Origin: Parcubacteria group bacterium GW2011_GWC1_36_108
GTDB taxonomy: Bacteria > Patescibacteriota > Minisyncoccia > Moranbacterales > GWC2-37-73
Direction of reading: 5' to 3'
Length of the DNA stretch: 64,000 nt
Assembly: GCA_000991245.1 (NCBI GenBank)
Contig: LBRD01000001.1
Coordinates: 5,467 to 69,466, forward strand
Part shown: positions 3,591 to 43,857 of the stretch, piece after piece
Position numbering within the stretch: position 1 is the first letter of the stretch
Layout: every line of letters starts with the position of its first letter
Notes under the pieces: model-generated
What the model was told of the DNA's origin: nothing
Databases searched by the model: none
Seen by the model: the letters and a program-made list of their open reading frames with translations, nothing else
Program-made: the position numbers and the translations under genes

Positions 3591-4625
3591 TTATTGCCAA
3601 CTATAAGAATTAAAAGTCCAACTAATCATTGTCTTGATATCCAACCATCGCTGAGAATCATCAAGAACTACTCCGACAATCCTGTGTTTTGAACTAAAAT
3701 CAGAAACCACTGTAAGCAAAGAATAACCAGCAAGTGGAGTAAACCCAGTTTTTGCACCAACAATGTTTGGCATTTGATCAAGCAACTGATCTGTATTTAA
3801 TATAGTATGCTCAATTTTTCCATCCACTGAAGTTACAATAGAATTGCTTGGCAAGCGTGCAAGCTTCCAAATAGTTTCATAGCGAAGTGAATACGCCGCA
3901 ATACGAGCAATGTCATATGCAGAAGAATAACATCCAGCTGCAGCGCCTTCATCATCCAAATCAAGTCCTGAGGACGTACAAAAATTTGTGTCTACCAACC
4001 CTAAATCTTTAGCTTTTTTATTCATAACTTGCACAAAAGCTTCCTCCGAACCAGATACATGCTTTGCAAGTGCAATTGCTGCATCATTAGCACTATTCAT
4101 AACCATCGCTTGAAGTAAACTCTTTGCTGTAATTGTCTCTCCAACTTTAAGACGTGGACTTATGCAATAGCCACTGCGAGGACAACCTATTTTTGTGCCT
4201 TCAGCATATACTGCCTCCTCATCAATAGTTACGGGTTCATCAAGATTTTTAATATTTTCCATCACTAAAACTGCTGTCATAATTTTTGTCAGTGAAGCAA
4301 TCTGCCTATGCGTACGCCCTTCGTTATAATGCAAAATAGTTCCTGTATCGGCATCAATAACTACAGAGGCATGCGCATTCGGCACAACAAGATCATTAGT
4401 TTTAATATCTCTTACTGGTTGATATTGAGGCTCATCCACTGCCTGCGCTTTTAAGGTTACAATTTTCTGCGTTTCAACGCCCGCCACCAATCCACTAATA
4501 CTATTTTCTTGACTACTAACAACATCAGCTTGAACTTGATTTCCATTAATAAAACTTTCCTGCAAAAATAAGAAGGAATTAAGCGGAAAAAAAACTATCA
4601 TCAAAATGGTTGCCCCTATACCCAT
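3591..4625 (-). CDS. D-alanyl-D-alanine carboxypeptidase (S11 serine peptidase, PBP5-like)
   Basis: SxxK (ASLTK), SxN (NSAND) and KTG (KTGFT) active-site triad. N-terminal signal/TM segment. Confidence 0.8.
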   Translation of the reverse strand: MGIGATILMIVFFPLNSFLFLQESFINGNQVQADVVSSQENSISGLVAGVETQKIVTLKAQAVDEPQYQPVRDIKTNDLVVPNAHASVVIDADTGTILHYNEGRTHRQIASLTKIMTAVLVMENIKNLDEPVTIDEEAVYAEGTKIGCPRSGYCISPRLKVGETITAKSLLQAMVMNSANDAAIALAKHVSGSEEAFVQVMNKKAKDLGLVDTNFCTSSGLDLDDEGAAAGCYSSAYDIARIAAYSLRYETIWKLARLPSNSIVTSVDGKIEHTILNTDQLLDQMPNIVGAKTGFTPLAGYSLLTVVSDFSSKHRIVGVVLDDSQRWLDIKTMISWTFNSYSWQ

Positions 4626-5173
4626 TACTCTTTTGAAATTATTGAATTAATTCTCTCATCCACTGAAAGTATACCATACTCTGGAAGATTTTTCACGGAT
4701 TCAATCCCTAATTTTTTAAGAAAATCAAATGTAATTGCATAAACATAACCTCGAGAGTCATTTGGGTTATCATTTCGCTCAATAAGCCCTCGCAGTAACA
4801 AGTTTCGCAGAGTGTAAGCACAATTAACACCTCGAATAGCTTCGATTTCCGTTTTAGAAATTGGACCACGATAAGCAATGATTGAAACGACCTCCATCGC
4901 AGCATTCGATAATGAATCTTGCAGCTCACTTTTAACCAATCCTTCAATAAATTCAGCATTTTCAGGATTTGAAACCAATTGCACTTCTTCGCCCTTAACA
5001 AGCAAGCTGAGCCCACTGCCCGCCAAGGCATATTTTTCGCTCAACAAAGCCAAAGCAGCATCAACTTCTTCAGCCCTAAGCCCCACAATCTTCATCAACT
5101 TCGCCCTCTTAATCGGCTCCCCACTAACAAACAAAATGCTTTCAATAACCCCTTGTAATTTTTCCAATTCCAT
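4625..5173 (-). CDS. scpB: Segregation and condensation protein B
   Basis: Two winged-helix ScpB repeats (ESILFVSGEPIK... ; VVSIIAYRGPISKTEIEAIRGV). Confidence 0.85.
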   Translation of the reverse strand: MELEKLQGVIESILFVSGEPIKRAKLMKIVGLRAEEVDAALALLSEKYALAGSGLSLLVKGEEVQLVSNPENAEFIEGLVKSELQDSLSNAAMEVVSIIAYRGPISKTEIEAIRGVNCAYTLRNLLLRGLIERNDNPNDSRGYVYAITFDFLKKLGIESVKNLPEYGILSVDERINSIISKE

Positions 5174-5220
5174 AGCTTTTAATTTTTTTATTACTTATTG
5201 AAAGTATACCAGCTTTTTAG

Positions 5221-5246
5221 GAATTATGTAATTAGCTACGTAATTC
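5221..5246. terminator. AT-rich hairpin GAATTAtGTA-N6-TACGTAATTC downstream of the 5272-6381 gene
   Basis: Imperfect inverted repeat. A second copy with the same stem sequence is at 43828-43857. Confidence 0.3.
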
Positions 5247-5271
5247 TCACATTTCATTTCTTAAATTTCTT

Positions 5272-6381
5272 CTAATTTTTATTTGAGCTGTCTGATACAT
5301 TTTGTCGCAACATCGCAAATCTCTCCTCCCTCCTTGGTAATAACTTACTAATTGGAGTTGTTGCAAATATTTCCACATAAAGATTTTCAGCTGTCACATT
5401 CTCATTTGTGATGATTTTTTTGGCAAGTTCATTGCAAAACTTTTGAGTTTCCTCATTTTCCTTGTGCTTGATTGTAAGCTCATCATTGATCAGTATATCA
5501 GAAATTTCTTGCTTGTCTTTAGCATTTTTTATTTTCGGCAAAACTCTGCCTATATAACATCTTATTACCTCTTGTATATCTTCAATAATTTTATCGAAAG
5601 TTTGTTCTATCAAGTCAACATCCCTAAGCGTTAATTTTCCACTTTGGGCCAAAAGTTTCAAATCATTATCATCATATGCTCTAGTAAAAAATAATTTATG
5701 ATAGGCAGCCAATGATGGATTTGAGCAATTGATTTTTCTGCCATGAAAATCGATTACTTCTGGCGTTAACCACTCTTTTGGTATAGTGGTTTCATGATGT
5801 CCAATGGGTTCACCGCTATCGTTCCATTTTATAATATGGGTATCGATACAAAAATTTTCTTTACCATATTTTATTGATCCATCTCCATTTATTGCAAAAA
5901 TCATTGGTTGAAATCCTTCCTCATTATTTTGCAGACGTTTTGCGTCAATGCGTTCAAAAATTCTTTTCTTTCCTGGGCGATGACCACTACTTAAAAATAA
6001 TCCGAAACCTTTACTGCCTAAAAATGATTCAACCTTTTCTAGCTCACGGAAATCAATCGATAAATCAATATCTTTATGCACACCTATATATGCACCTCTA
6101 TAAAGTGAAATATTCAAAGCCCCGTCTAATTGCCAATAAAAATCAGCTCCCTGAAACAAGTCTCCCAACTGCTCAAGAGATTTGTCTAGTTCATTCTTTT
6201 CTTCTTCCGTACAAGGTCTTCGTTCAATATCTTTTTCAGATAAGAAATCAGCGCCTTCTTCCCAAAAAGGTTCCTTTTGAAATTTGTTTCTTTCTCTAAT
6301 TTTTGATTGCTCTGCTAGGTCTGGTTGTGCTTTCACAACTTCCGTGGCTTTTCTCATCATTTGTTTCTCAAAATCATTCAT
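5272..6381 (-). CDS. Nucleotidyltransferase-fold protein (minimal NTase motif)
   Basis: LYRGAYIGVHKDIDLSIDF fits the G[SG]x9-13 DhDh pol-beta NTase motif, with more acidic residues downstream. The rest of the protein is unassigned. Preceded by GC-rich 30-mer copy 1. Confidence 0.45.
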   Translation of the reverse strand: MNDFEKQMMRKATEVVKAQPDLAEQSKIRERNKFQKEPFWEEGADFLSEKDIERRPCTEEEKNELDKSLEQLGDLFQGADFYWQLDGALNISLYRGAYIGVHKDIDLSIDFRELEKVESFLGSKGFGLFLSSGHRPGKKRIFERIDAKRLQNNEEGFQPMIFAINGDGSIKYGKENFCIDTHIIKWNDSGEPIGHHETTIPKEWLTPEVIDFHGRKINCSNPSLAAYHKLFFTRAYDDNDLKLLAQSGKLTLRDVDLIEQTFDKIIEDIQEVIRCYIGRVLPKIKNAKDKQEISDILINDELTIKHKENEETQKFCNELAKKIITNENVTAENLYVEIFATTPISKLLPRREERFAMLRQNVSDSSNKN

Positions 6382-6416
6382 ATTATTTCCAATCTGAAAT
6401 TATTATTTATTTGTTA

Positions 6417-7013
6417 TTAACTCACTCTTCCACGGCCGACGTTGAGTGAGTGTTCTTTTTTTTTGAAAAACATTTTTTCGAGATATTTACCGTTATCCAA
6501 TTTCTGTGCCGTGATGACTCTGACAAATTTTTCCGCCGAATACAGGGCAACCAATTCCAAAATAGGCTTCTCGAAAGGATAAGGCGAAACAAAAACACTG
6601 TGCTGCAATTTCCTGAATTTCAAATCCTTCAAGTGATTCCTAAGCACATCGCGGAAAAGTCTATCTTTTTCAGGAATATCAAACATGACGACTCGCCATT
6701 TGCCATCCCATTTCTTCGGCTTCTTAAATTCTATCGACTTTCCGAAGATATTCAGCACGCGGGCTTGCTTCCTGCCTTTTTCAGTTAAAGTCAATTTAAA
6801 AGAACCGTCGGGAAGCTCGATCTCACTTATAAGTTTTTCCTTCGAAAGACTCTTAATGGAGCGATTAAAATTCTGTGGATTTATTTTTACCCATTCTTTT
6901 TTCAATTTTCGCAAAGTACTAAAATATTGTCGAGGCGATGAAGACATACCCAAAGCGACCCCACCTAAAAGCGCCAACAATATTTTCTTTTGAACAGCTC
7001 CTGGCCTATACAT
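6417..7013 (-). CDS. PaaX-family transcriptional regulator (winged helix + PaaX middle domain)
   Basis: WDGKWRVVMFDIPE...HSVFVSP matches the PaaX signature (E. coli PaaX has AWDGKWLLLLSEGLDK...). N-terminal wHTH-like segment. The ORF's last 8 codons read into repeat copy 1. Confidence 0.65.
   Translation of the reverse strand: MYRPGAVQKKILLALLGGVALGMSSSPRQYFSTLRKLKKEWVKINPQNFNRSIKSLSKEKLISEIELPDGSFKLTLTEKGRKQARVLNIFGKSIEFKKPKKWDGKWRVVMFDIPEKDRLFRDVLRNHLKDLKFRKLQHSVFVSPYPFEKPILELVALYSAEKFVRVITAQKLDNGKYLEKMFFKKKEHSLNVGRGRVS
6423..6452. promoter_or_regulatory. GC-rich 30-mer CACTCTTCCACGGCCGACGTTGAGTGAGTG, copy 1 (candidate operator) upstream of the NTase-like gene
   Basis: Exact 30-nt repeat present three times (6423, 7073, 7615). 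It is GC-rich in an AT-rich genome and lies ~40-70 nt upstream of three consecutive start codons. Confidence 0.55.
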
Positions 7014-7072
7014 ACCCCGATTATACTATAAAAAAATAAAGATTTCTATCTTAATAATATCACACGTTGCAT

Positions 7073-7102
7073 CACTCTTCCACGGCCGACGTTGAGTGAG
7101 TG
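7073..7102. promoter_or_regulatory. GC-rich 30-mer, copy 2, upstream of the PaaX-like gene
   Basis: Identical to 6423-6452. A TATAGTATAAT -10-like box lies between it and the PaaX-like start. Confidence 0.55.
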
Positions 7103-7146
7103 ATGGGGTGTTTGATTATTTTTTATTTTGTCTGCCTACTAAGACT

Positions 7147-7169
7147 GGTTACGTAACATGTTACGTAGC
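7147..7169. repeat. TACGTA palindrome GGTTACGTAACATGTTACGTAGC (family copy)
   Basis: Near-perfect palindrome centred on CATG, immediately 3' of the NUDIX gene. Confidence 0.5.
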
Positions 7170-7172
7170 TAA

Positions 7173-7580
7173 TTATAATTCAACTATTAATTTATTTTTT
7201 ATTTCAATTGGTCTCAAATCCAAATCCGAAAGCTCCTCTAACTTTATCCACATTGGTTCATAAATTCCACTATTGCGGTCTGGACTATATTCTTCCCCGT
7301 CACCACTTCCGAGTTTTCCTCCTAATATATCGCATTGATAAAAATATTCTTTCTGTGGTTCATTATCTTTTTTGATAAAATCAAAATCATACATAAGTTC
7401 CAAGACTGAAACATCTAAGCCCAATTCTTCTTTGCATTCTCTTCTTAGTGCTATGGGATGACTTTCTCCATCATCAACCCCGCCGCCGGGAAAAACAAAA
7501 TATGTTTCCCCATTTTTAATTCTCTTAATTACTAACAGTGAATCATCATTTTTAATTATAGCCCTAACCACAATTCTCAT
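7173..7580 (-). CDS. NUDIX hydrolase
   Basis: Nudix box GGGVDDGESHPIALRRECKEELGL. The ATG at 7580 (MRIVV) is the likely start; the ORF track extends to a TTG at 7595. Confidence 0.8.
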   Translation of the reverse strand: MRIVVRAIIKNDDSLLVIKRIKNGETYFVFPGGGVDDGESHPIALRRECKEELGLDVSVLELMYDFDFIKKDNEPQKEYFYQCDILGGKLGSGDGEEYSPDRNSGIYEPMWIKLEELSDLDLRPIEIKNKLIVEL

Positions 7581-7614
7581 ATTTTTTATTTCCAATCTGA
7601 AATTATTATTTATT

Positions 7615-7644
7615 CACTCTTCCACGGCCGACGTTGAGTGAGTG
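7615..7644. promoter_or_regulatory. GC-rich 30-mer, copy 3, upstream of NUDIX. Shares the extra AT-rich 5' segment ATTTCCAATCTGAAATTATTATTTATT with copy 1.
   Basis: Exact repeat. The AT-rich segment (7587-7613) is identical to 6384-6410 and supplies the same spacing to the AUG for the NUDIX and NTase genes. Confidence 0.55.
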
Positions 7645-7660
7645 GTGGTGAAAGATGGGG

Positions 7661-7828
7661 TTAGGATTTGAAGTCGGAGATTATTATGCGCTTTCGTTCG
7701 ATTTTGAAGGTCATTTTTTGGCGCTCTTTAATTCCGAGTTCGGCGACGATTTCGGATGGAATCACGATTGAAAGACTTCGTTTCCCTACTCTTGTAACTT
7801 TGCGAACAAGTTCTTCTTTCTTTTTCAT
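7661..7828 (-). CDS. AbrB/MazE-family (swapped-hairpin) DNA-binding protein, 55 aa
   Basis: Manual translation gives MKKKEELVRKVTRVGKRSLSIVIPSEIVAELGIKERQKMTFKIERKRIIISDFKS. VTRVGKRSLSIVIPSEIVAELGI is a typical AbrB/MazE/SpoVT looped-hinge motif. It is below the ORF-track size cut-off. Confidence 0.5.
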   Translation of the reverse strand: MKKKEELVRKVTRVGKRSLSIVIPSEIVAELGIKERQKMTFKIERKRIIISDFKS

Positions 7829-7884
7829 AACGCTTTGTCATTCCGAACTTAATCCGGAATCTAGATTAATTTTTATTTTTTATT

Positions 7885-7910
7885 TTGCTACGTAGCATGT
7901 TACGTAGCAA
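7885..7910. repeat. TACGTA palindrome TTGCTACGTAGCATGTTACGTAGCAA
   Basis: 26-nt near-perfect palindrome flanked by a T-run and an A-run, 3' of the 1175-aa gene. Confidence 0.5.
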
Positions 7911-7946
7911 AAAACATATTCAACTGTTTTTTTCTATAAATTATTT

Positions 7947-10900
7947 TTATCCATTAACAATTTCTTCGAGTTTCCAAAAACGACTGCCGCCTTTTTCAAT
8001 CAACTCATTTATCAATTCCGAAACTGCCAACTTCGTTGCATCATTTTTGTATAAAATTTCAAAAGCCCTGACGAAATCATTCACATAGATCATATTTCTA
8101 AATGATTCCGATTTTTTGAGACAGTACTCCAATAAATAAGCTTTCAGTATTCTCAATGTTTCTTGCGGTGCTTGCTCAGCAAGAATTGGCACAGACTTGA
8201 TCAAGCCATAATCCCAATCTGTTTCGCCTTTGCTTTTCTCAAGAGTTTCGGCAATGTGATCCGCAAGCCATTTGGAATCGGCAAAAACATTTTGTTCCTT
8301 GTCCACCCAAAAGCCAAAACCAGCAAAAACTTCTTCATTTTCAACATTCTTAAGTGTCCAATCCCAAAGGTCTTTTATTTTTTGCACATCAACTTTGCTC
8401 TCTTTGATGATAGTGGTTGCATTGGCGTTTGAAACAATATGCCTACCAACAAAAGAAATAGATTCTTTTTGCCTTGTCGTGTTTTGATTTTTCCAAAACA
8501 TTTCAAACAACTTTGAGCCTATTTTGAAATCAGGAAAATGAACATACGCAAGTGCCAAATGAGTTGCCAAACCTTCATCAATATTTTTGAAGTATTTTCT
8601 ATCAGTATAAATTTTCGAATCAAGCTGGATTGCTCTTTCATACAAATCCTCAAATTGAACGAACATGTCTCCATAGATATTGGCAGAAAGATACCCTTCC
8701 CAGGCTGCAAGATACAAATCAAATTTATCACCATCTTTTGAAAATATTTTTGGCATCAAAGAAGCAATCCATTTTTTGTCTCTATAATAAAAAGACGGTA
8801 AATAATGTCCAAACAAAAACATGATCGCAAAAGTCTTCTCCCTTTCCAGTGTCTCTTCAAAAATTTCCTTAACTTCTTTGGAAATTTCTTTTTCTGAAGA
8901 ATTTTCTCCCTCACGATAGACAAAAAGCACCAACGCCTGAAAAGCTCTTCCACGAACTGAATTTATGGCAACAAAGAAAGGTTCGCTTTCCTCCTCAGTA
9001 TTCCTTTCAAGACCGGGATTTTGATGTGCGAGGAGATGTTTGATGACAAACAATAATTGTTCGTGATGTTTTGAAAAATCAATTGTTGTTTGAGTTTTTC
9101 CTTCTCCCAGCAATTCTTTGATGACATCAGACATTGAATAGAAAACTGATTTCCAGCCAACAAGCCAGGCATCAAACTCTTGACGCCTATCATTCTCTTC
9201 AGGAAAATTTTCATCCGCATCTGATTTGACAATGTTTTCAATCAAAATCAGCAACTTTCCAAAATCAACATTTTCTTTTTCAACTTTATTTTCTCGCAAA
9301 ACATCATACACACCTTGCAAAAATGAATGAGTGTAGTGCTGATCCAAAACATCTCGATTGAAAAACAGCTCTGCAGAATCAATATATTCCTCAAATCTTT
9401 GAGTGATGTCTTGTTTGAGCAAGTTTCCCATTCCTTCCGCATTCAAAGGATTCATGAAATCTTTTTCGGTGTCCATAGCTTGAAGATTTTTCGGCGACCA
9501 TATTTCACAAAGATTTGAAACTATTTCCGAAACTTTAAATTTTTGCAAATCTTCCAGGGTTATTGGAGCTTTTGCAGAAATGAATCCTGCCATCCCGTTT
9601 GAAACAATGCTTGGCTCCGGCTGAAACTCTTCTGCGATTTTGCCTTCCAACTTTTCCTCGGCTATGTTTTTTTCATTTGCATCAAGCTCAAAAAAAACGC
9701 AGGAAAGAATTTCACGTCCTTTAACTTTGTGCCAAAATTCATCTTTTTCATCCTCTCTTTTTTTGCCGAAATATTCAATGACATTTTTGATAAATTGTCT
9801 TTTATCCTCATTTAAAAGTACAGAAAAACCTCTTTTCAAAGCCTGCTCATATTCAGCTCCGAAAATCAAATCATAACCATTCTTGTTTTCCTCAAAAAAT
9901 CTAAAAAAGGCTTTTTTCAACTCCGCTTGGAAAATTTGAGGATGAAGACTGAGCACAAACAAACTGAAACGCCACATTGAACGACTGAGTGGCAAAGTTT
10001 CAGCATACTCAGCATACATCCTTTTCATTTTTTCTGGCTCGGCATAATTTTTTGCAAACAATCTTTCAATGAGTTTTTTCATCACAGCAGTCAAGTTCTT
10101 CACATCATCGCGATATGAAGAATGCCTGTCATCTTCAAGTTCAAGTGTGAAAAAATCAACATCAAAAAGTCCAAAGCTATCCTCCACCTCAAAAATCTCG
10201 TTTTTGCTTTTTCTTTTTTTATTTGGGACAATTTTTTTCATCACATCCAAAACAAGTTTCAAAGCCTCTTCCAAATTTTCATCGTCAATTTCAGTCAAAT
10301 GTTTGAAAATTTCAATTTCACCAAGATCCCTAAAATAGAACGGGTTTTCCATGCCAAAAGTTTCTTTTTCACTCGCAACTTCTTTAGGGCGGACAGCCAG
10401 AACAGATTCAGTCAAAATCAAGAAATTTTTCCAATCTTTTGCTTCGGCAAGTTTTTCAAGCATTTGCTGATATTCAAAACCGAAATTGTTGAATTTTTTC
10501 ATCAATTGGATCCATTTTTCATCTCTGATCTTCAAAACCATTCTGACAAGTTGCTCTTTTGGCAAGGAACTGCAGATATATGCAAAGCTATTGATGACTT
10601 CCGGATTGAAATTTTCATCGGAAATTGGAACATCGAGCATGAAGTTGACAACACCAGCGGGGTCTTGTTCTGAGATATTCACAAGATATTGCAACTCTGG
10701 CAGAGTGTAGGAATATTGATTTTTGTCATTTACAGTTTTTTTCACTGCATCCAGAAATCCATTTTTGTGCAAAAATTTTAACCAATTTTTATCAGCTTTA
10801 TTAAAAAAATAGTCTTGAGCATCAACATTTGATTTTAAGATCAATTCCAAATCATTCTTTATTTGTTTTGTTTTTCCAGAAAGTTTTTCCTGAATAATTA

Positions 10901-11474
10901 AATCAATAACATTATGAATGTATATTTGCTGGAAACCGAAAGATTTATTGAGAACATTAATAGCATTTTGCATTAATTCTTCAAACTCACTGTGATCATC
11001 TAAGCTAACAAACTCCTTTTCCGAAAGACATCCTAGATTTACACCATGATGCGCAATATCTGACATTTTCCTATATATTATATCAAGATTTTTAAAAGTA
11101 TCTATAAATTCTCTGTTAAATTTTTTGCCTTCACTCTTTTCATCTGTAGCATAACAATTAAATAATTTTATCAAGTTATAATTTACATTTTTACCAATAA
11201 GAGGAAAAAGAACTTCCCTCATGGAATTTGCAGCCTGACTCATCCAATCAGGATTCGATCTACATTCCAATCTAATTGCATAAAAAGCCCCCTTAATCAA
11301 ATCAGAAGGTTTTCTCCCTATATGTTTTTTAGGATAACTATTATAAAAACTATCTATCTTGTTACATAGTTCACTCACATTTGATCCAGGAATAACTGGG
11401 GACAAAACAAAATCACCATAAGAAACAAGGCTTGATGTTTTTTTATTTTCTATATGTTTTTTGTTATTTCCCAT
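7947..11474 (-). CDS. Large (1175 aa) protein of unknown function, predominantly alpha-helical and acidic/lysine-rich. Candidate defence-island protein.
   Basis: Long uninterrupted ORF with consistent codon usage. No Walker A and no obvious catalytic motif. The N-terminal ~150 aa contain RKMSDIAHH (Rx6H, HEPN-like, speculative). Confidence 0.6.
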   Translation of the reverse strand: MGNNKKHIENKKTSSLVSYGDFVLSPVIPGSNVSELCNKIDSFYNSYPKKHIGRKPSDLIKGAFYAIRLECRSNPDWMSQAANSMREVLFPLIGKNVNYNLIKLFNCYATDEKSEGKKFNREFIDTFKNLDIIYRKMSDIAHHGVNLGCLSEKEFVSLDDHSEFEELMQNAINVLNKSFGFQQIYIHNVIDLIIQEKLSGKTKQIKNDLELILKSNVDAQDYFFNKADKNWLKFLHKNGFLDAVKKTVNDKNQYSYTLPELQYLVNISEQDPAGVVNFMLDVPISDENFNPEVINSFAYICSSLPKEQLVRMVLKIRDEKWIQLMKKFNNFGFEYQQMLEKLAEAKDWKNFLILTESVLAVRPKEVASEKETFGMENPFYFRDLGEIEIFKHLTEIDDENLEEALKLVLDVMKKIVPNKKRKSKNEIFEVEDSFGLFDVDFFTLELEDDRHSSYRDDVKNLTAVMKKLIERLFAKNYAEPEKMKRMYAEYAETLPLSRSMWRFSLFVLSLHPQIFQAELKKAFFRFFEENKNGYDLIFGAEYEQALKRGFSVLLNEDKRQFIKNVIEYFGKKREDEKDEFWHKVKGREILSCVFFELDANEKNIAEEKLEGKIAEEFQPEPSIVSNGMAGFISAKAPITLEDLQKFKVSEIVSNLCEIWSPKNLQAMDTEKDFMNPLNAEGMGNLLKQDITQRFEEYIDSAELFFNRDVLDQHYTHSFLQGVYDVLRENKVEKENVDFGKLLILIENIVKSDADENFPEENDRRQEFDAWLVGWKSVFYSMSDVIKELLGEGKTQTTIDFSKHHEQLLFVIKHLLAHQNPGLERNTEEESEPFFVAINSVRGRAFQALVLFVYREGENSSEKEISKEVKEIFEETLEREKTFAIMFLFGHYLPSFYYRDKKWIASLMPKIFSKDGDKFDLYLAAWEGYLSANIYGDMFVQFEDLYERAIQLDSKIYTDRKYFKNIDEGLATHLALAYVHFPDFKIGSKLFEMFWKNQNTTRQKESISFVGRHIVSNANATTIIKESKVDVQKIKDLWDWTLKNVENEEVFAGFGFWVDKEQNVFADSKWLADHIAETLEKSKGETDWDYGLIKSVPILAEQAPQETLRILKAYLLEYCLKKSESFRNMIYVNDFVRAFEILYKNDATKLAVSELINELIEKGGSRFWKLEEIVNG

Positions 11475-11636
11475 TATAATTTTTCGCTAAATCATATAGA
11501 GCTTACGAAATATTTACACACCTAATAATATTGGTACTGTTGGAATCTTTTCCGTACAAAGTTTTATTGAGAGAACCTTCGACTTTGCACCATCCTAAAT
11601 TTATTTCAAAATCTGAAATAAATTTTTATTTTACAT

Positions 11637-11659
11637 TGTTACGTAGCATGTTACATGGT
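11637..11659. repeat. Degenerate TACGTA palindrome (GTTACGTAGCATGTTACATGG)
   Basis: Partial match to the 26-nt palindrome family, 3' of the 11659-12369 gene. Confidence 0.35.
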
Positions 11660-12369
11660 TACTTTTTTTCTGAATATTTTTTCATAAAATATTTTCCCTT
11701 TTCGGTAAGATTAAATTTTTCACTTCCACTACTATTTGGCACTATTTCAATAAGTTCATGTGTGTCACAATAAACTTTTATACCAAGAGGAATATCACTC
11801 GCCCATCTGTTTCCTTCATAATATGTCTGACGAATTGAATCAAAAGAATTAAAATAATTTGAACCTTTAAAAATTTCGTATTCATCATCCCAAGCTTCTT
11901 CTTGGGACTTTTCTGATTTTATTTTCTTTACAGCTGTTTCTTTTTTAAGGACTTTTTCCTCCGCTTCTAATTTTATTTCTTCTGCTTGAAACTTCTTACC
12001 CTCCAATTTAAGGAAATCCTCTTCTTTTTTTAATTTTACAGTTTTAATATCATATTCATACTCCAAAGATTTTAGATAGTATTTTTTTGTTATTTTTGGT
12101 AGCCAAAATACGACTAGGTATGAAAACAAAAATGGAGTAAATAAACTATAAGCAATTGACCACAAATGACTTACGGGATAAAAAGTCAAAAGATAGTCGA
12201 TTTTCAAAACAGATTTTGACTGCATCAAAAGATCAGAATCGACAAAAAAAGTTACATACCAAACCCTCCAATTCCATACCAGCCAAGATGCAATAAATGC
12301 ACCCCAGAATGGACTAACTAATTTTTCGCCCAGGTTTTTCTCTAATGATTTTTTTGCTTCATCAAACAT
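11659..12369 (-). CDS. Hypothetical membrane-anchored protein with coiled-coil (K/E-rich) linker and a C-terminal globular domain
   Basis: 236 aa with two N-terminal TM segments and a KLEGKKFQAEEIKLEAEEKVLKKE coiled-coil. Unknown family. Sits immediately upstream, on the same strand, of the 1175-aa gene. Confidence 0.45.
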   Translation of the reverse strand: MFDEAKKSLEKNLGEKLVSPFWGAFIASWLVWNWRVWYVTFFVDSDLLMQSKSVLKIDYLLTFYPVSHLWSIAYSLFTPFLFSYLVVFWLPKITKKYYLKSLEYEYDIKTVKLKKEEDFLKLEGKKFQAEEIKLEAEEKVLKKETAVKKIKSEKSQEEAWDDEYEIFKGSNYFNSFDSIRQTYYEGNRWASDIPLGIKVYCDTHELIEIVPNSSGSEKFNLTEKGKYFMKKYSEKK

Positions 12370-12372
12370 ATT

Positions 12373-13125
12373 TTAAATTTTTTGAAAAATAAACAGATGC
12401 TCATGCATAATCAAGAGAAAATTGCTTTCTTGAGATCGTTTTACCCAAAAGCCGGTCGCTTTACAGTTGTGTTGTTTTTTAATAATATCCTCTTTCAACA
12501 TAAAACCTTGCTTCAAAAATCTCTCCATAACTTTAAATGCTAAGGGTTGATACATTTTTTCTCTTCTGGTATCCCCCATCAAAATTGCACAATATTTTCC
12601 TTTTTTCAAAACTCGAAATAATTCACTGGCAACTTTTTCAATTTCATCACAAAATTCATCCAGACTATGAATGCCAGATAAATCTTCTTTAATTTTTCCT
12701 TCGCTATATTTTATAATATCAACATATGGTGGATGAGTAAGAACAAAGTCTATTTCTTCATTCTTGATGAAGGTCATATTGCGAGCGTCACATTTTATTA
12801 TTCGTTGCTTGGATTTATTTTCAACCTCAAATTCCAAGGATTTTCTTGTACGTTCCAGTGCTTCTTCATTAACATCAACACAAGTGATATGACGATTTAA
12901 TATTTTTGCCTCTATTGCAGTCGTTCCACCACCAATCATGCAATCAAGAATGTGATCACTTTCTTTTGAATAACGCAGGATTAAATTACGTACCACTTCT
13001 GGCGCCCAGTTTCCACGCCAATCAGATTTATGTGTCGCCCAATTTCCACGACGTGGAAATGACCATACCGTTGTGCATTCTAAATCAAATTCGTCGGGAT
13101 GCAATTTGATATCTTTTTTGTTCAT
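12373..13125 (-). CDS. Site-specific DNA methyltransferase, N4/N6 class (PF01555-like, DpnA/MboIC-like)
   Basis: WSFPRRGNWATH...NWAPEVVRNLI (FP/HPA-FP region), DCMIGGGTT (AdoMet motif I) and LTHPPYVDI (motif IV, a DPPY variant). Confidence 0.8.
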   Translation of the reverse strand: MNKKDIKLHPDEFDLECTTVWSFPRRGNWATHKSDWRGNWAPEVVRNLILRYSKESDHILDCMIGGGTTAIEAKILNRHITCVDVNEEALERTRKSLEFEVENKSKQRIIKCDARNMTFIKNEEIDFVLTHPPYVDIIKYSEGKIKEDLSGIHSLDEFCDEIEKVASELFRVLKKGKYCAILMGDTRREKMYQPLAFKVMERFLKQGFMLKEDIIKKQHNCKATGFWVKRSQESNFLLIMHEHLFIFQKI

Positions 13126-13934
13126 TATTTTATTTCTAAAATATATTTTTTGCTTTTTACTATTTTCATTTCATTACTAAGACCTTTTTTGTTGTGCTCT
13201 AAGTCGTATGCCCAATATTCAATTCCTCGATTATTTGTTTGCGCAAGCAACACCAGTGAATGCACTTTTTTATGCTGTAAAAGTTTTTCCCATTTTAGCA
13301 GTGGAATCAATGCCTGATTAATATCAAAATTTTCCTGATTAAATGAACTCTTCATCTCTACAATAACTACAGTATCTGGCCATTCAAAACCACCATCTAT
13401 TTCAATTTGAGCTTTGGACATGTCTATATCGGAAGTTCCCACAACAAGATGAACAGCAGCTCGTTGACGACCACCCGTAAATAAAATTCCTGCTTTACCC
13501 AATTCGTAGAAATCTGAAATAATACCTGAGTAATTAGCAATTGCCAACAATGTAGTTTCTCCAGGATTAGTATTCCGACTCATTGTATCCCTAACGCCAA
13601 CTATCATACCGTCTGTTAACTTATTTTTTGGTTGAAAAATAATTTCCTCATCTGGTTTTATAAATTTAACGCTCTCAGTATGCAATATAAGTTTCCACTT
13701 TTGACGACTCAAGGGTATCTTAGCTACGCTCCTTTTCTTAACAGCTTTAATTTTTTCACTTCCGTAATGGAAAATACGTATTTCTCCTTGTCCTGATTTT
13801 TTGTATTTTGATAAAAATGGTTCAAGATCTTCCCTGCTATATTCAACTACATCATTTCCATCTGGACGATTATCCCAGAATTTTTTAAGAAACTTCTCCC
13901 AAGCTGCTTCTTTCCATGAATCTTTATTGGCCAT
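13125..13934 (-). CDS. Candidate PD-(D/E)xK nuclease (possible restriction endonuclease)
   Basis: SDIDMS...WPDTVVIVEMK resembles the D...(D/E)xK catalytic core. Its start overlaps the MTase stop (ATGA). No closer family assignment is possible by eye. Confidence 0.4.
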   Translation of the reverse strand: MANKDSWKEAAWEKFLKKFWDNRPDGNDVVEYSREDLEPFLSKYKKSGQGEIRIFHYGSEKIKAVKKRSVAKIPLSRQKWKLILHTESVKFIKPDEEIIFQPKNKLTDGMIVGVRDTMSRNTNPGETTLLAIANYSGIISDFYELGKAGILFTGGRQRAAVHLVVGTSDIDMSKAQIEIDGGFEWPDTVVIVEMKSSFNQENFDINQALIPLLKWEKLLQHKKVHSLVLLAQTNNRGIEYWAYDLEHNKKGLSNEMKIVKSKKYILEIK

Positions 13935-13968
13935 AATATAATTTATTTATTATTTCTTGTTTTGGTAA

Positions 13969-14835
13969 TTACCACGCTAATTCTTCAAGAGATCCCTGCT
14001 CTACCATTTGCAAATTGAAAACATATTCATTGTTGTTATATGTTTCTTCGAGTGGTCTTTTTGTTGTGTGCCAACCAAGTCCATCAGTAACCCAAACAAA
14101 ATCAATGCCCTGTTCTTTCAGTTCTCTATAAAGATCTTTAAACTCTCCACAAACTGCTTTCAATTTTGAACCGCCGCCATTGTAAAAATTAACTTCAAAC
14201 AATTTAATTTTTTTATTTTCAGGATTAAATACGGCGAAGTCAAAACTTCTTTCTGATTTATTTACCTTAACTTCGACACCCCACTTATTGCGAATTTCCG
14301 TAGAGCTTGCCTGCGCTATGTATTCAAAACCTTTTTGTTCACATAATTTGCCAATATGAGATTCAACTATTTTCTCCATTAGTGACCCTCCGCGATTTTT
14401 TCTGCCGTTGCTATCCAGTCCAACTTCAACACCAATAACATAATCAACAAGATTTTTAATTCCCTCTTTTTTAAAAAGGTTTATCAAGCCAGTTCTCTCA
14501 AGAAACATATAATACTTTTCAAAATTATCAACGCCAGCTTCATTATTCTTAAAATCAAAGATTTCAAAACTCCCATCACTTAATTCAAATATCTCTAACT
14601 GCTTTTCCCTTACTGCCAATAAGACTGGAAAAGCCTTAACTACGTCAGAATTAGTTTCGTATAATGTTTTAAATTCCGCCTTCAAATCCTCTTTTCCCAA
14701 AAGATAATTTAATTTATTCAGAATAATTTCCATCTCCGAACTATTTGTAAAAACCTTTTCCCAATTTACAAAATATTCCCATGTTTTAATTGAGTTTTTT
14801 AATGTATCTACTAAATTTTGAAAGTCTTTCTGCAT
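13969..14835 (-). CDS. Type II restriction endonuclease, DpnII/MboI family (GATC-specific family)
   Basis: 288 aa. NLVDYVIGVEVGLDSNGRKNRGGSLMEKIV, EVNFYNGGGSKLK and WVTDGLGW closely match my recollection of R.DpnII (NLVDYVTGVEVGMDTNGRKNRTGDAMENIV, EVNFYSGSGSKL, WITDGQGW). Adjacent to a Dam-class MTase. Confidence 0.65.
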   Translation of the reverse strand: MQKDFQNLVDTLKNSIKTWEYFVNWEKVFTNSSEMEIILNKLNYLLGKEDLKAEFKTLYETNSDVVKAFPVLLAVREKQLEIFELSDGSFEIFDFKNNEAGVDNFEKYYMFLERTGLINLFKKEGIKNLVDYVIGVEVGLDSNGRKNRGGSLMEKIVESHIGKLCEQKGFEYIAQASSTEIRNKWGVEVKVNKSERSFDFAVFNPENKKIKLFEVNFYNGGGSKLKAVCGEFKDLYRELKEQGIDFVWVTDGLGWHTTKRPLEETYNNNEYVFNLQMVEQGSLEELAW

Positions 14836-14849
14836 AAATATAGACTTTT

Positions 14850-15821
14850 TTAATAATTGATTACGACAACCTCCTTAATTTTTCCTCTTCCTGTGCCTTT
14901 TGAATTTATTGAACGTCCAGCGTCAACAGTGTGAATTTTTATTTTTTTGCCTAGTCCAGAATATAATTCATTAATAAGTGGCGTATCAGAATTTGAAAGC
15001 ATAACATAGCAACCTCTCTTGTGGAGTTCCATAAAGGCATCCTTCAATTCTATTTGTTGTTTTTCAAGAAATCCCTCCTTGGTATAACTCGTAAAACTAG
15101 AAGTTGCATTAACAGGATAATAAGGCGGATCAAAATAAACAAAATCTCCTTTTTTTGCTTTTTCTAAAACTTTTCCATAATCCTGATGCAAAATTTTGGT
15201 ATGTTTCATTGCATCATGGGCTTTCCGCAAATTTTCTTCATCACAAATAAGTGGATTTTTATTATCCCCAAATGGAACATTGAATTGACCACTACTATTA
15301 ACACGAAACATCCCATTGAAACAAGTTCTATTCAGATATATAAAACGAGCAGCAACATCAACATCAGAAAGTTTTTTAAAATCTTGCGCACGAACTTTGA
15401 GAAAATATTCTTTATTATTTTTCTTTTGATGTTCTTTTAATTTTTTTATTAATCCTTCAACATCATTTTTAATAACATTATAAGTTGTTACTAATTCGGC
15501 ATTCATATCAGACAAAACAGCTTTTTTTGGCAACAAATCAAAAAACATTGCCCCACCACCGACAAAAGGCTCAAAGTAAGTTGCAGTTTTCGGATCAAAG
15601 TCATAGGGCGGATATAAATCTCTCTCCCTAAATTGTTTGAGTAATTGCCTTTTTCCTCCAACCCACTTTACAAACGGTTTTGGATTTTCATCTTTAAATT
15701 CTTTGTACGCCGATATGATATTTTCAGCTGATGCATTTTTAAGGTTCGACATAAAAACCCGCAGATGAATTGGATGGATATTTAAACTGACGGCTATATC
15801 TTGTATTATTTTTTGTGTCAT
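14850..15821 (-). CDS. DNA adenine methyltransferase, Dam/D12 class (DpnM/MboIA-like)
   Basis: FVKWVGGKRQLL, FEPFVGGGAMFF (motif I) and YFDPPYYP (DPPY). About 40 aa of N-terminal extension. Confidence 0.85.
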   Translation of the reverse strand: MTQKIIQDIAVSLNIHPIHLRVFMSNLKNASAENIISAYKEFKDENPKPFVKWVGGKRQLLKQFRERDLYPPYDFDPKTATYFEPFVGGGAMFFDLLPKKAVLSDMNAELVTTYNVIKNDVEGLIKKLKEHQKKNNKEYFLKVRAQDFKKLSDVDVAARFIYLNRTCFNGMFRVNSSGQFNVPFGDNKNPLICDEENLRKAHDAMKHTKILHQDYGKVLEKAKKGDFVYFDPPYYPVNATSSFTSYTKEGFLEKQQIELKDAFMELHKRGCYVMLSNSDTPLINELYSGLGKKIKIHTVDAGRSINSKGTGRGKIKEVVVINY

Positions 15822-15909
15822 ATTTTTATTTTAAACTCTTACAGTGATATTATATCATTCAATAGGTTCGAACACAACTGTGGATAACTTATTTTTCAAA
15901 AATAAAACC

Positions 15910-15935
15910 TTGTTACGTAACATGCTACGTAACAA
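15910..15935. repeat. TACGTA palindrome TTGTTACGTAACATGCTACGTAACAA
   Basis: 26-nt near-perfect palindrome between the Zn-ribbon gene and the Dam MTase. Confidence 0.5.
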
Positions 15936-16029
15936 CATCAATTGACTTATGCCCCATTATCTCATAATCCCCCCACTTAATCAATTAAATAAAACAAAGA
16001 AAAGACCGGCTGAATTGCCAGTCTTTTGC

Positions 16030-16218
16030 CTATTTTCTACCTCCTCTTTTTTCAACCTCCCCATCTTTCAATTCTTTGCCAGACCAGCGTCCAAAACGTG
16101 CGCCACAATCTTGGCAGACAATTTCACTCACGCCGTCATAATACTCAGGATGCATCATGTCATATTCCACCATGATAATATTTTCACTTCCGCACTTTTT
16201 ACATTTTTCGTTTTCCAT
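16030..16218 (-). CDS. Small zinc-ribbon protein (62 aa)
   Basis: CKKCGS...CQDCGARF: two CxxC pairs. Lysine/Glu-rich tail. Confidence 0.5.
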   Translation of the reverse strand: MENEKCKKCGSENIIMVEYDMMHPEYYDGVSEIVCQDCGARFGRWSGKELKDGEVEKRGGRK

Positions 16219-16231
16219 ATTATTTTCAATT

Positions 16232-17296
16232 TTATTTTTTCACCATCCTATATCTTGTTGCCCTTCCCATCCCAATGCGCCTGATCAGTCCATGTTCAAG
16301 CAATCTTGCCACGGATTTTTTTATGGTTGGCAATGGAATGTCGGCCAAGTTTTTTTTGATTTCAGCCACGCCCAATTCAACCTCAACATTGCCAAACAAA
16401 TCAAAAATTTTCTTTTGCACCTCAGAAAGCAAACTTTCTGGATCATTTCCTTTGAGCAAGTCTATCGCTTTTTTTGATTGAATCAAGATGCAGTCCAAGA
16501 AAAAATTAATCCACGGATCAATATTCTCATCAGTAGTCTTGTGATTTTTTTGTGTTTCCCTTAGAGCCAAATAGTATTCCGACTGTTTATCTTCAATGAT
16601 TTCTTCCAGGGAAACATATGGGACATGCAAATATCCAGCCTGGAGCATCATAAGATTTGTCAATGCGCGAGAAAGTCGCCCATTCCCATCTTCAAATGGA
16701 TGGATTGCGAGAAATTCAAAAATGAAATTTGCAATCATCACCAGAGGATGCATTTCTTTTTTTCCCTGATTTTCCTTGAGCCACTCCAAAGCATCATCCA
16801 TCTCTTTTTTCACAAGCCATGGAGGCGTTGGATTGAAAAGAATTTTCTTAACTTCTCCATTTTGAACAATTGCAACTGTGTTTTCTTTCTTTTTGTATTT
16901 TCCTCTATGCAATTTGTCTTTTTCAGAAAACTCAAGCATGATTTCATGGAGTTGCAAAATTCTGTTTTCAGTTATTTTCAGCGAATCATGATGATCAAAA
17001 ATTCTTCCAAGCAAATCAGCATAACCAGCAACTTCCTGCTCATCTCTGTTTTTTGGAACCAGCTGTTTTATGCCACGCAAAAATCTGTCCACTTGCTGGT
17101 CAGTCATTTTTGAACCCTCAATACGCGTGGATGATCCCGTGCTAGTGATAATCACTGAACGCTTAAGTTGACCCAATATTCTTGGATTCAATGCTAGTGA
17201 TCCCTTCCATTGCCCTTTCATTTCATCAATCTTGGTAATTTTGAGCAAAATCTCATTGGAAAGCCTTATTCTTTTGTCTAGTCTGTCTTTTTTCAT
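16232..17296 (-). CDS. Fic family protein (class II, intramolecular inhibitory motif) with C-terminal winged helix
   Basis: Fic motif HPFEDGNGRLSRA. STRIEGS inhibitory (S/T)xxxE(G/N) motif upstream. C-terminal HTH-like tail. Confidence 0.85.
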   Translation of the reverse strand: MKKDRLDKRIRLSNEILLKITKIDEMKGQWKGSLALNPRILGQLKRSVIITSTGSSTRIEGSKMTDQQVDRFLRGIKQLVPKNRDEQEVAGYADLLGRIFDHHDSLKITENRILQLHEIMLEFSEKDKLHRGKYKKKENTVAIVQNGEVKKILFNPTPPWLVKKEMDDALEWLKENQGKKEMHPLVMIANFIFEFLAIHPFEDGNGRLSRALTNLMMLQAGYLHVPYVSLEEIIEDKQSEYYLALRETQKNHKTTDENIDPWINFFLDCILIQSKKAIDLLKGNDPESLLSEVQKKIFDLFGNVEVELGVAEIKKNLADIPLPTIKKSVARLLEHGLIRRIGMGRATRYRMVKK

Positions 17297-17524
17297 ATAT
17301 ATTCAGATATATCCAATTGTATACGATAATATCCATAAAGTCAAGCTTTTGCTGTGCACATTTTTTTGATTTTTTGTGCATAATTGTCAAGATGTACACA
17401 ATATGTGTGCTAAGTTCTACTTTATGCTCAAATAAGCCATTTTTGTGACAATCACATGATCAATTACTTCAATTCCCAGAATCTTCCCTGCTTCAATAAG
17501 CTGCTTAATAATTGCAAGAATAAA

Positions 17525-18244
17525 TTACGTAATACTTTTCACATCCTTATGTCTCATTTTTATTTCGGAAAACAACTCCCCCTGCTCAACATGAATAATT
17601 CGTTGTTTTACTAATTCAAGCATTGCAAGAAATGAAACTACTACTTCAACCTTATCTTTTGCATTTGCAACGAGCTCGGCAAAGGATGTTTGCACACGCT
17701 CTCGCAGGGTATCTTGCAAATGAATAATTCTATCTTCCAGAGTTAAAACTTCTTTTACCATTTCTTCTTCCAGTTTTTCTACTATAGGAATTTCTCCAAG
17801 CACCTTGTTAAAAGCTTTTTGCAAATCGCTAGCTACAATGTTTTCCGGTGGATAAAAAACCATTCCTATCCCCAAGAATCCTTCACGCGAAAAACTTGAC
17901 TTGGGAGAATCAAAAACGAGAGCAAGTTTTGCTGAAGCGTCTTTAAATTTTTTATACTCTGCCAATTGATATTCCAAATCTTTAATCTCTTCCTCCTCTT
18001 CTTCAGTAAATTCCAACATCGGAAGCAAGGCTTTGGATTTGATCAAAATAAGTCTTGCAGCCACTGACAAAAAATCAGCCAGATGAGCAAGCGTGATGTC
18101 TTTGGCCTCAGCAATATAGGCCAGATATTGATCTGCAATTTTCGCCAAACTTACTCGAGTAATATCAAGTTTTTCCTGTTCCGTCAGTTGCAAAAGCAAA
18201 TCCAGCGGCCCTTCAAATTGTTCGAGTTTAAAATGATAAGACAT
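17525..18244 (-). CDS. scpA: Segregation and condensation protein A (kleisin)
   Basis: FEGPLDLLLQLTEQEKLDITRVSLAKIADQYLAYI N-terminal ScpA signature. Start taken at MSYHFKLEQF. Confidence 0.8.
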   Translation of the reverse strand: MSYHFKLEQFEGPLDLLLQLTEQEKLDITRVSLAKIADQYLAYIAEAKDITLAHLADFLSVAARLILIKSKALLPMLEFTEEEEEEIKDLEYQLAEYKKFKDASAKLALVFDSPKSSFSREGFLGIGMVFYPPENIVASDLQKAFNKVLGEIPIVEKLEEEMVKEVLTLEDRIIHLQDTLRERVQTSFAELVANAKDKVEVVVSFLAMLELVKQRIIHVEQGELFSEIKMRHKDVKSIT

Positions 18245-18283
18245 AATAATTTCAATAATCAATAACAACAATACAAAAACAAA

Positions 18284-40195: not shown

Positions 40196-40240
40196 CATAT
40201 GAAGTAGTATGGTAGTGGTCGCATATTACAATATACTGAA
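40196..40240 (-). terminator. Intrinsic terminator CCACTACCATA-ctacttca-TATGGTAGTGG followed by a U-run
   Basis: Perfect 11-bp stem followed by TTTTTTTT on the minus strand, 3' of ABC copy 2. Confidence 0.7.
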
Positions 40241-40258
40241 ATATTGTAATACAAATAA

Positions 40259-43806: not shown

Positions 43807-43827
43807 GGACAACACCGATAAAAAAAG

Positions 43828-43857
43828 AATTACGTATTTAGTTACGTAATTCTTTTT
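43828..43857. terminator. Hairpin AAGAATTACGTA-tttagt-TACGTAATTCTT
   Basis: 12-bp AT-rich inverted repeat immediately 3' of 43567-43806, followed by a T-run. Same stem sequence as 5221-5246. Confidence 0.45.

Follow-up and report, generated by a model that had tools for sequence, protein, structure and literature searches.

A stretch of 64,000 nucleotides (nt) of contig LBRD01000001.1 from Parcubacteria group bacterium GW2011_GWC1_36_108, here called the window, carries three exact copies of a 30-nt sequence, CACTCTTCCACGGCCGACGTTGAGTGAGTG, grouped around a gene for a short PaaX-like protein. All genes in this region are encoded on the minus strand, where the 30-mer reads CACTCACTCAACGTCGGCCGTGGAAGAGTG. 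Along that strand the order is a gene for a 1175 amino acid (aa) protein without Pfam hits, a 22-bp TACGTA-type palindrome, a MazE/AbrB-type gene, copy 3 of the 30-mer and a NUDIX hydrolase gene. Then come the palindrome again, copy 2, a promoter-like TAGAAA-17-TATAAT sequence and the PaaX-like gene, with copy 1 at its 3′ end. A nucleotidyltransferase (NTase)-like gene, a half palindrome and scpB complete the order. Coordinates are collected in Table 1.

Table 1. Features around the repeated 30-mer (positions are those of the window)
Feature	Position	Strand	Remarks
NTase-like gene	5272..6381	-	369-aa LnuA/ANT(2″)-like nucleotidyltransferase
MazE 3′-end relic	6383..6411	-	between copy 1 and NTase start
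PaaX-like gene	6417..7013	-	198 aa; PaaX_M/Cas2-like domain
Element copy 1	6423..6452	-	overlaps 3′ end of PaaX-like open reading frame
Promoter-like TAGAAA-17-TATAAT	7020..7048	-	best sigma-70-like match in region; consensus match only
Element copy 2	7073..7102	-	upstream of PaaX-like gene
Second palindrome GTTACGTAACATGTTACGTAGC	7148..7169	.	45 nt upstream of copy 2
NUDIX hydrolase	7173..7580	-	58.8 bits
MazE 3′-end relic	7586..7614	-	between copy 3 and NUDIX start
Element copy 3	7615..7644	-	between MazE/AbrB and NUDIX; fits TCA-N8-CGRYCG-N8-TGA consensus
MazE/AbrB-type (SpoVT-AbrB) gene	7661..7828	-	55 aa; PF04014 27.3 bits vs cut-off 24.7
Second palindrome	7887..7908	.	~60 nt upstream of MazE start
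Second palindrome, further sites	15912-15933, ~11634-11655		half-site 5229-5243; related 43824-43855

No copy of the 30-mer is expected by chance in the window (0 expected), no additional copy is found there with up to three mismatches, and 100 dinucleotide shuffles of the window gave 0 matches. The G+C content of the 30-mer is 18/30 (60%), compared with 27–40% for 1-kb windows of the sequence. An initial annotation of this DNA had placed the repeat upstream of the NTase-like, PaaX-like and NUDIX starts, and its positions (6423, 7073 and 7615) are exact. The gene calls made with it are likewise borne out by the domain scores (PaaX_M 80.2, NUDIX 58.8, MazE_antitoxin 27.3 and Aminoglyc_resit 21.9 bits). 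The gene-proximal ends of copies 1, 2 and 3 lie 41, 59 and 34 nt from the NTase-like (6381), PaaX-like (7013) and NUDIX (7580) ATG codons, respectively. Copy 1 also falls within the final 11 codons of the PaaX-like open reading frame, an overlap missed earlier. Copy 2 is centered some 75 nt ahead of the PaaX-like ATG, with the −35-like hexamer about 25 nt downstream of that center, and copy 2 is 650 bp from copy 1 and 542 bp from copy 3. Copies 1 and 3 have 29 further identical bases in common, which in gene sense read AATAAATAATAATTTCAGATTGGAAATAA, and copies 2 and 3 are both preceded by ACCCCAT. A C-rich stretch (ACCCCAT, CCCACCCCTC) is often found 5′ of the element on the gene strand, in the window at 7103–7112 and 7645–7660 and also in the relatives L009, L011 and L020 (L001–L024 are the numbered loci or genomes compared with the window). 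The upstream C-rich stretch gives polarity to an otherwise palindromic site.

Exact-core scans found the 30-mer only in Moranbacteria assemblies, i.e. two metagenome-assembled genomes of the genome collection and seven metagenome loci, and no copy of the core is present in the viral collection. An exact 21-mer scan of a 483-kb contig of a relative showed three copies, two of them flanking the PaaX-like gene. The repeat is found before the NUDIX gene, before the PaaX-like gene, and at the 3′ end of the PaaX-like gene, with the NTase gene (window) or a HAD hydrolase gene (L004, L005, L007) next. It is also situated between an ABC transporter and a short-chain dehydrogenase gene (L002, L006), between two small membrane-protein genes (L001, L010) and, in L009, after a truncated MazE gene and before a GNAT acetyltransferase gene. 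All 30 bases are kept in seven copies from at least three genomes, with sharp boundaries and diverged flanks. A generic repetitive extragenic palindromic (REP)-like element, present at many unrelated loci, is rejected since the copy number is too low (three in 64 kb, and three on the 483-kb contig).

The PaaX-like gene is accompanied by related palindromes well outside the window lineage. Ortholog loci from eight other genomes (L012, L013, L015 and L017–L021) encode PaaX-like proteins 64–76% identical to that of the window. In all eight the gene is bracketed by a palindrome that is specific to the genome, has a CG(G/A)(C/T)CG core and is present in two to five copies, one or two of them within about 500 nt upstream and one to three within about 400 nt downstream. 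On the downstream side, the nearest core lies 5–29 nt past the stop codon. The loci add up to about 70 kb, and 24 of their 28 copies are within 600 nt of the PaaX-like gene. Genes downstream of the orthologs are different in every genome, and the PaaX-like gene is the sole constant neighbor of the palindromes. In L018, L020 and L021, whose proteins are 65–68% identical to that of the window, the distances are the same, with the upstream core exactly 23 nt before the ATG and the downstream core 15–17 nt from the stop. The right arm in L018 and L020 starts with TATAAT, so that the palindrome overlaps the −10 box of the PaaX-like gene itself; the corresponding bases in L021 read TAAGAT. The element 23 nt before the ATG is in the classic position of an autorepressor site.

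The 28 copies can be aligned without gaps on the core and show the geometry TCA-N7-ACGGCCGT-N7-TGA, with TCA at positions −14 to −12, an ACGG|CCGT center and TGA at +12 to +14. The CG pairs at −3, −2 and at +2, +3 are invariant (28/28), as is G at +13. Also conserved are C at −13 (26/28), A at −12 (20/28), A at −4 (24/28), T at +4 (23/28) and T at +12 (26/28). Core variants are CGGCCG, CGATCG and CCGGCCGG. The window 30-mer spans −17 to +13 and has the family base at all conserved positions except −4; position +14 is A in all copies of the window lineage. The consensus TCA-N8-CGRYCG-N8-TGA, derived from the other genomes and then scanned on the window, finds solely the three 30-mers, and tolerating one mismatch adds no further site (0.18 expected). 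By its sequence, the 30-mer is the same element as the palindromes that flank the PaaX-like orthologs, in the version of the window lineage. Loss of TAAT/ATTA from each arm of the window element is rejected, as the gapless alignment shows identical geometry. L017 displays two element types around its PaaX-like gene (3761–4965), four copies with the CCGGCCGG core and GTAAC/GTTAC outer arms and one canonical copy, CTCCACGGCCGTGAGA.

The arms explain a difference in protein length. PaaX-like orthologs mostly have 184–190 aa, 186 being the commonest length, and the window protein has 198. In L015 the stop codon of the protein lies inside the element (CACTCA|TAA). The extra 11–12 C-terminal residues of the window protein are read from copy 1, because the window has CTC in place of the L015 stop and the reading frame continues through the element. 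The stop codon of the L015-type arm was thus lost by substitution.

The PaaX-like protein matches PaaX_M (PF20803) at residues 100–174 with 80.2 bits (cut-off 24) and belongs to a large family. There are 941 proteins at E ≤ 1e-5 and 1,417 cluster representatives at E ≤ 1e-10, most of those listed having about 180–200 aa. One relative is 97% identical; besides it, the best 120 of the 941 are 63–77% identical and mostly 184–190 aa long. The score against the PaaX equivalog model TIGR02277 is 27.7 (cut-off 264.55). Orthologs end at about 185 aa, just past the Cas2-like domain, and the C-terminal (effector) domain of PaaX is absent. Residues 106–142 match the Cas2 profile in its N-terminal half, below threshold (21.2 versus 23.8), and the segment from FDIPE to QHSVF corresponds to the first half of that profile. 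An AlphaFold (AF2) model built with 45 sequences displays three helices and two beta strands at low confidence, followed by a confident ferredoxin-like domain. The best Foldseek match in the PDB is E. coli PaaX, 8a39 (E = 2.3e-4, 174 columns aligned), with Cas2 proteins next. Weak PDB matches also include the winged helix-turn-helix (wHTH) proteins F93 and a MarR-family protein. By analogy, the protein may work as a minimal PaaX consisting of a DNA-binding and a dimerization domain, outside the PaaX equivalog family. The region that the protein lacks binds the inducer phenylacetyl-CoA in PaaX, according to a review (PMC9493321). The acyl-CoA or ligand response proposed in the initial annotation is unlikely here because this effector domain is missing.

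E. coli PaaX represses its own promoter Px by occlusion of RNA polymerase, at a widely spaced inverted repeat, TGATTC-N27-GAATCA (PMC9493321). In the window, 6 nt separate the −10 box of the promoter-like sequence from the PaaX-like ATG, and the mRNA may thus be leaderless or nearly so. Copies 1 and 3 are intercistronic and no promoter is detectable downstream of them. The bracketing in the eight other genomes, with overlap of the −10 box in three of them, agrees best with the earlier proposal of an autoregulatory operator. The 30-mer is probably the cognate DNA site of the PaaX-like protein, and the sites are most likely operators of an autoregulated protein that combines a putative winged helix with a Cas2 fold. 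The PaaX-like protein as binder, repression by binding, and a roadblock or looping mechanism are all inferred. A dimer, or a higher oligomer, would bind the quasi-palindromic site of about 30 bp, whose inner and outer half-sites are one helical turn apart. Where the site covers the −10 box, as in other genomes, binding would occlude the promoter and give direct autorepression. In the window, control would instead act through the upstream site and the site at the 3′ end of the gene, and copy 2 could have an effect only by cooperating with copy 1 or copy 3, or through an activating geometry. Protein bound at copies 1 and 3 would limit read-through into the NTase-like and NUDIX genes.

Several observations do not sit well with operators of this kind. 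No Pfam PaaX wHTH match is found at E ≤ 0.1, and the N-terminal domain of the model has low confidence (pLDDT, the predicted local distance difference test score, is about 50). The putative recognition helix (…NFNRSI…) is near-invariant, whereas the arms of the element vary considerably between genomes. Copy 2 is centered too far before the start, off the promoter, and simple occlusion cannot apply to it. One copy follows the stop codon directly irrespective of the gene that comes next, which is not usual in ordinary regulons. The 30/30 identity with sharp boundaries at seven loci is tighter than in typical operator sets and hints at copy-paste spread. The protein is linked to the site by co-localization.

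The palindromic symmetry of the element is real. Over the whole palindrome 67.9% of cells pair, a level that 0 of 500 shuffles attained; the shuffled value is 55.9%. For a conserved hairpin the pairing is nevertheless poor: positions 5–10 pair in about 55–65% of copies, with many uncompensated mismatches, and there is no sense-strand excess of G-T over A-C mismatches (27 versus 46). The conserved bases form two symmetric blocks 10 bp apart and therefore lie on one face of the helix. A search of the whole window with Rfam 15 at the gathering threshold gave four tRNAs and nothing else, and a permissive search (E ≤ 10) over 5100–8000 gave nothing credible at the repeats. A protein-binding DNA site is favored because the hairpin is mismatched, the conserved blocks are base-specific, the −10 box is overlapped in other genomes, and neither an Rfam match nor a T-run is found.

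It is unlikely, though conceivable for the intercistronic copies 1 and 3, that the element acts in RNA, as an intercistronic transcript hairpin that modulates processing, stability or translation and is perhaps recognized by the Cas2-fold domain. Every copy is co-oriented with the genes, copies 1 and 3 lack a downstream promoter match and separate genes that run in the same direction, a fold of −11 kcal/mol (z = −1.9) is obtained for the gene-sense strand, and the symmetry is above shuffled controls, all of which such a hairpin would account for. However, fold z-scores in context are weak, just 68% of cells pair, the mismatches at positions 5–10 are uncompensated, and no sense-strand G-U bias is seen. 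The upstream copies at the −10 box in L018, L020 and L021 would also be mostly upstream of the likely transcription start.

The gene flanked by its own genome-specific palindromes resembles the arrangement of REPtrons, in which a REP-associated tyrosine transposase (RAYT) is surrounded by REP sequences. The palindromes might accordingly be substrates of the Cas2-fold/wHTH protein, or cassette-junction recombination sites, with the protein propagating or recombining them and thereby shuffling the genes of the island in which the locus lies. Such a mobile or recombinogenic repeat is improbable, though it has observations in its favor. Copies are homogenized within a genome, and the identical sharp-edged 30-mer is found at unrelated loci (between the ABC transporter and dehydrogenase genes, between small membrane-protein genes, and between MazE and GNAT genes). 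The spacer in the window orthologous to the ABC-dehydrogenase site of L002 and L006 (39388–40225) contains no element, which is a presence/absence polymorphism. Synteny breakpoints relative to L007 coincide with the element or its leader, and the FDIPE to QHSVF segment resembles Cas2. On the other hand the copy number is very low, no transposase or integrase is identified among the neighbors scanned, and the same start and stop distances in L018, L020 and L021 speak for an old, fixed architecture. Homologous recombination between the repeated MazE sequences would account for the breakpoints just as well. It is quite improbable that the protein is also a DNA-processing factor which recognizes and propagates its flanking palindromes, a RAYT analogue on a Cas2 fold. 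If it were, the palindromes would seed module swapping in the defense-type islands where the gene often sits.

The ABC-dehydrogenase region shows some further features. In L002 and L006 the site carries a palindrome plus the 30-mer. The spacer in the window holds an open reading frame of about 200 aa with a canonical terminator before it. Paralogous ABC-transporter genes are present in the window at 32740–34462 and 40225–41988, both at about 83% to one L006 gene.

A site for another protein, e.g. a MazE/AbrB-type or an unlinked factor, with the PaaX-like gene merely adjacent, is very unlikely. In the window lineage the 30-mer does usually adjoin MazE sequence, either the complete gene, a fragment of its 5′ part or a relic of its 3′ end. 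The eight other genomes, however, carry the element at the PaaX-like gene and show no MazE_antitoxin match among the called neighbors. Highly improbable as well is functionless duplication debris, in which the copies near the NUDIX and NTase genes are by-products of duplication and deletion of the PaaX flank and only the PaaX-proximal site or sites function. The MazE relic common to copies 1 and 3 and the ACCCCAT common to copies 2 and 3 do point to recent duplication and recombination. Against this, seven copies in at least three genomes keep the 30 bases while the flanks diverge, the window and L007 being just 92.6% identical overall in this region. The few substitutions in relatives (L004a, L004b, L009) are at −15, −16 and +8, where the family shows no conservation, so that conserved positions are avoided.

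Three other candidates are rejected. An intrinsic terminator does not fit as there is no T-run on the gene strand at any of the three copies; other parts of the window do have canonical terminators with T-runs. Integron attC sites are at least about 57 nt long and have paired R″/L″-L′/R′ boxes next to an IntI integrase. The 30-nt unit has one RYYYAAC/GTTRRRY-like box, and no integrase is found among the neighbors scanned. A promoter formed by the 30-mer and leader is dismissed since there is no acceptable −35/−10 pair and the gap separating 30-mer and leader is not constant, with 11 nt of difference from copy 1 to copy 3.

That copies 1 and 3 have an AT-rich stretch in common had been noted before and is borne out (29 nt), but the stretch lies outside the operator. 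It translates as IIISDWK, and the L007 MazE gene ends in …KKIIISDWK*. The stretch is therefore a relic of the 3′ end of a MazE gene. The L007 NUDIX leader reads IEKIMISDWK. The NUDIX, NTase and HAD hydrolase genes each formerly occupied the second place in a module headed by MazE. The 30-mer lies today at deletion junctions of such modules, with other junctions in L009 and L011. In L009 (700–1040, minus strand) there are two tandem MazE 5′ fragments, both cut after …SIVIP, and the second is followed by a C-rich stretch, a variant of the 30-mer and the GNAT acetyltransferase gene. The gene after MazE is NUDIX in the window, a 475-aa protein without Pfam hits in L007 and GNAT in L009. As noted earlier, no MazF/PemK partner is adjacent to MazE. 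MazE/AbrB antitoxin or regulator modules are similar in that a 55-aa SpoVT-AbrB gene heads two-gene modules and relics of it precede the NUDIX, NTase and HAD genes. They are different in that MazF/PemK is lacking here and the downstream enzymes are varied (NUDIX, GNAT, HAD, NTase and the 475-aa protein without Pfam hits).

The region is part of an island of about 12.3 kb (5173–17525) which splits scpA (18271..17525) from scpB (5173..4625). Besides the MazE, NUDIX, PaaX-like and NTase genes it encodes Fic, a Dam methylase with a DpnII endonuclease, DUF6997 with an N6/N4 methylase, and two proteins without Pfam hits (236 and 1175 aa). Island content differs at the same place in the relatives L007 and L008. 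Synteny with L007 (92.6%) extends from the NUDIX leader through the PaaX-like gene to the leader after copy 1. Beyond this point L007 has the HAD hydrolase in place of the NTase, and synteny returns at the half palindrome before scpB. L007 also has its 475-aa gene between MazE and NUDIX, with no 30-mer there. Recombination and deletion, acting locally on MazE-headed modules of the variable island, appear to have produced the three identical copies with their flanks. The NTase, NUDIX and MazE genes are swappable island cargo and not one system. The proposal that NUDIX and NTase act together in nucleotide-signalling defense is not upheld, as gene content is not conserved. Reading these genes as recombining cargo prevents their wrong annotation as a toxin-antitoxin or nucleotide-signalling defense system. 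The PaaX-like gene adjoins genes of restriction-modification or defense type (type I restriction-modification, GmrSD, OLD-like, Fic) in five of nine lineages (L013, L015, L018, L020 and the window at 11659–17296).

The second palindrome forms a family, GYTACGTARCATGYTACGTARC, in which the 9-mer TTACGTAGC is found five times versus 0.18 expected. All five sites are in the scpA-scpB island, each in the gap separating two successive transcription units. The palindrome is also found near PaaX-type elements in L002, L007, L011 and L018. It is probably another protein-binding site because no T-run follows it.

The NTase-like protein matches Aminoglyc_resit (ANT(2″)) with 21.9 bits, just over the cut-off of 21, and NTP_transf_5 weakly. 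It aligns to LnuA in a PDB sequence match, with a G..DxD core and a second acidic motif. There are 31 matches in the family, the few with source names being candidate phyla radiation bacteria, and homologs carry precomputed PF10706 matches. The protein has the core and the second acidic motif of LnuA/ANT(2″) nucleotidyltransferases, but is twice as long, with N- and C-terminal extensions, and belongs to a rare family. The order of a putative wHTH gene followed by an NTase-fold gene recalls AbiEi/AbiEii, a resemblance suggested earlier that does not hold. There is no DUF1814, AbiE or PADLOC match, and the pairing is not conserved in any relative examined: the NTase homolog loci L022–L024 have no PaaX-like gene, no MazE and no element, and in the sister genome L007 the NTase slot is occupied by a HAD hydrolase. 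AbiE, CBASS (cyclic-oligonucleotide-based anti-phage signalling) and other defense readings of the NTase are rejected, with no PADLOC defense-model match and no conserved neighbors.

To our knowledge, few predicted transcription factor-operator pairs are known in candidate phyla radiation bacteria. A literature search found none for the short PaaX-like family, and no description of short PaaX-like/Cas2-like regulators of these bacteria or of their palindromes. The work offers a candidate factor-site pair for a large family of short proteins, with a position-specific model of the site and an unusual conserved layout. The protein would be an autoregulated winged-helix repressor of PaaX ancestry that has no effector domain and whose sites lie on either side of its gene.

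The similarities to known systems are partial. As in Cas2 of CRISPR adaptation, there is a ferredoxin-like fold and the N-terminal half of the profile is matched; unlike Cas2, the domain is fused to a putative winged helix and scores below Cas2 cut-offs, and no cas1 or CRISPR array is found among the neighbors scanned. REPtrons share a single conserved gene flanked by genome-specific imperfect palindromes, with a few further intergenic copies. However, the present gene encodes a putative wHTH and a Cas2 fold and no Y1 (HUH) transposase, its palindromes number a handful and not tens to hundreds, and their distances are fixed. The PaaX repressor of the phenylacetate catabolon in E. coli and Pseudomonas has the same PaaX_M Cas2-like middle domain and is the best structural match (8a39), and its autorepression at a widely spaced inverted repeat is the feature likened here. 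It differs in that the present protein has no effector domain and no paa genes nearby, and its putative site is unrelated in sequence and is found on both sides of the gene.

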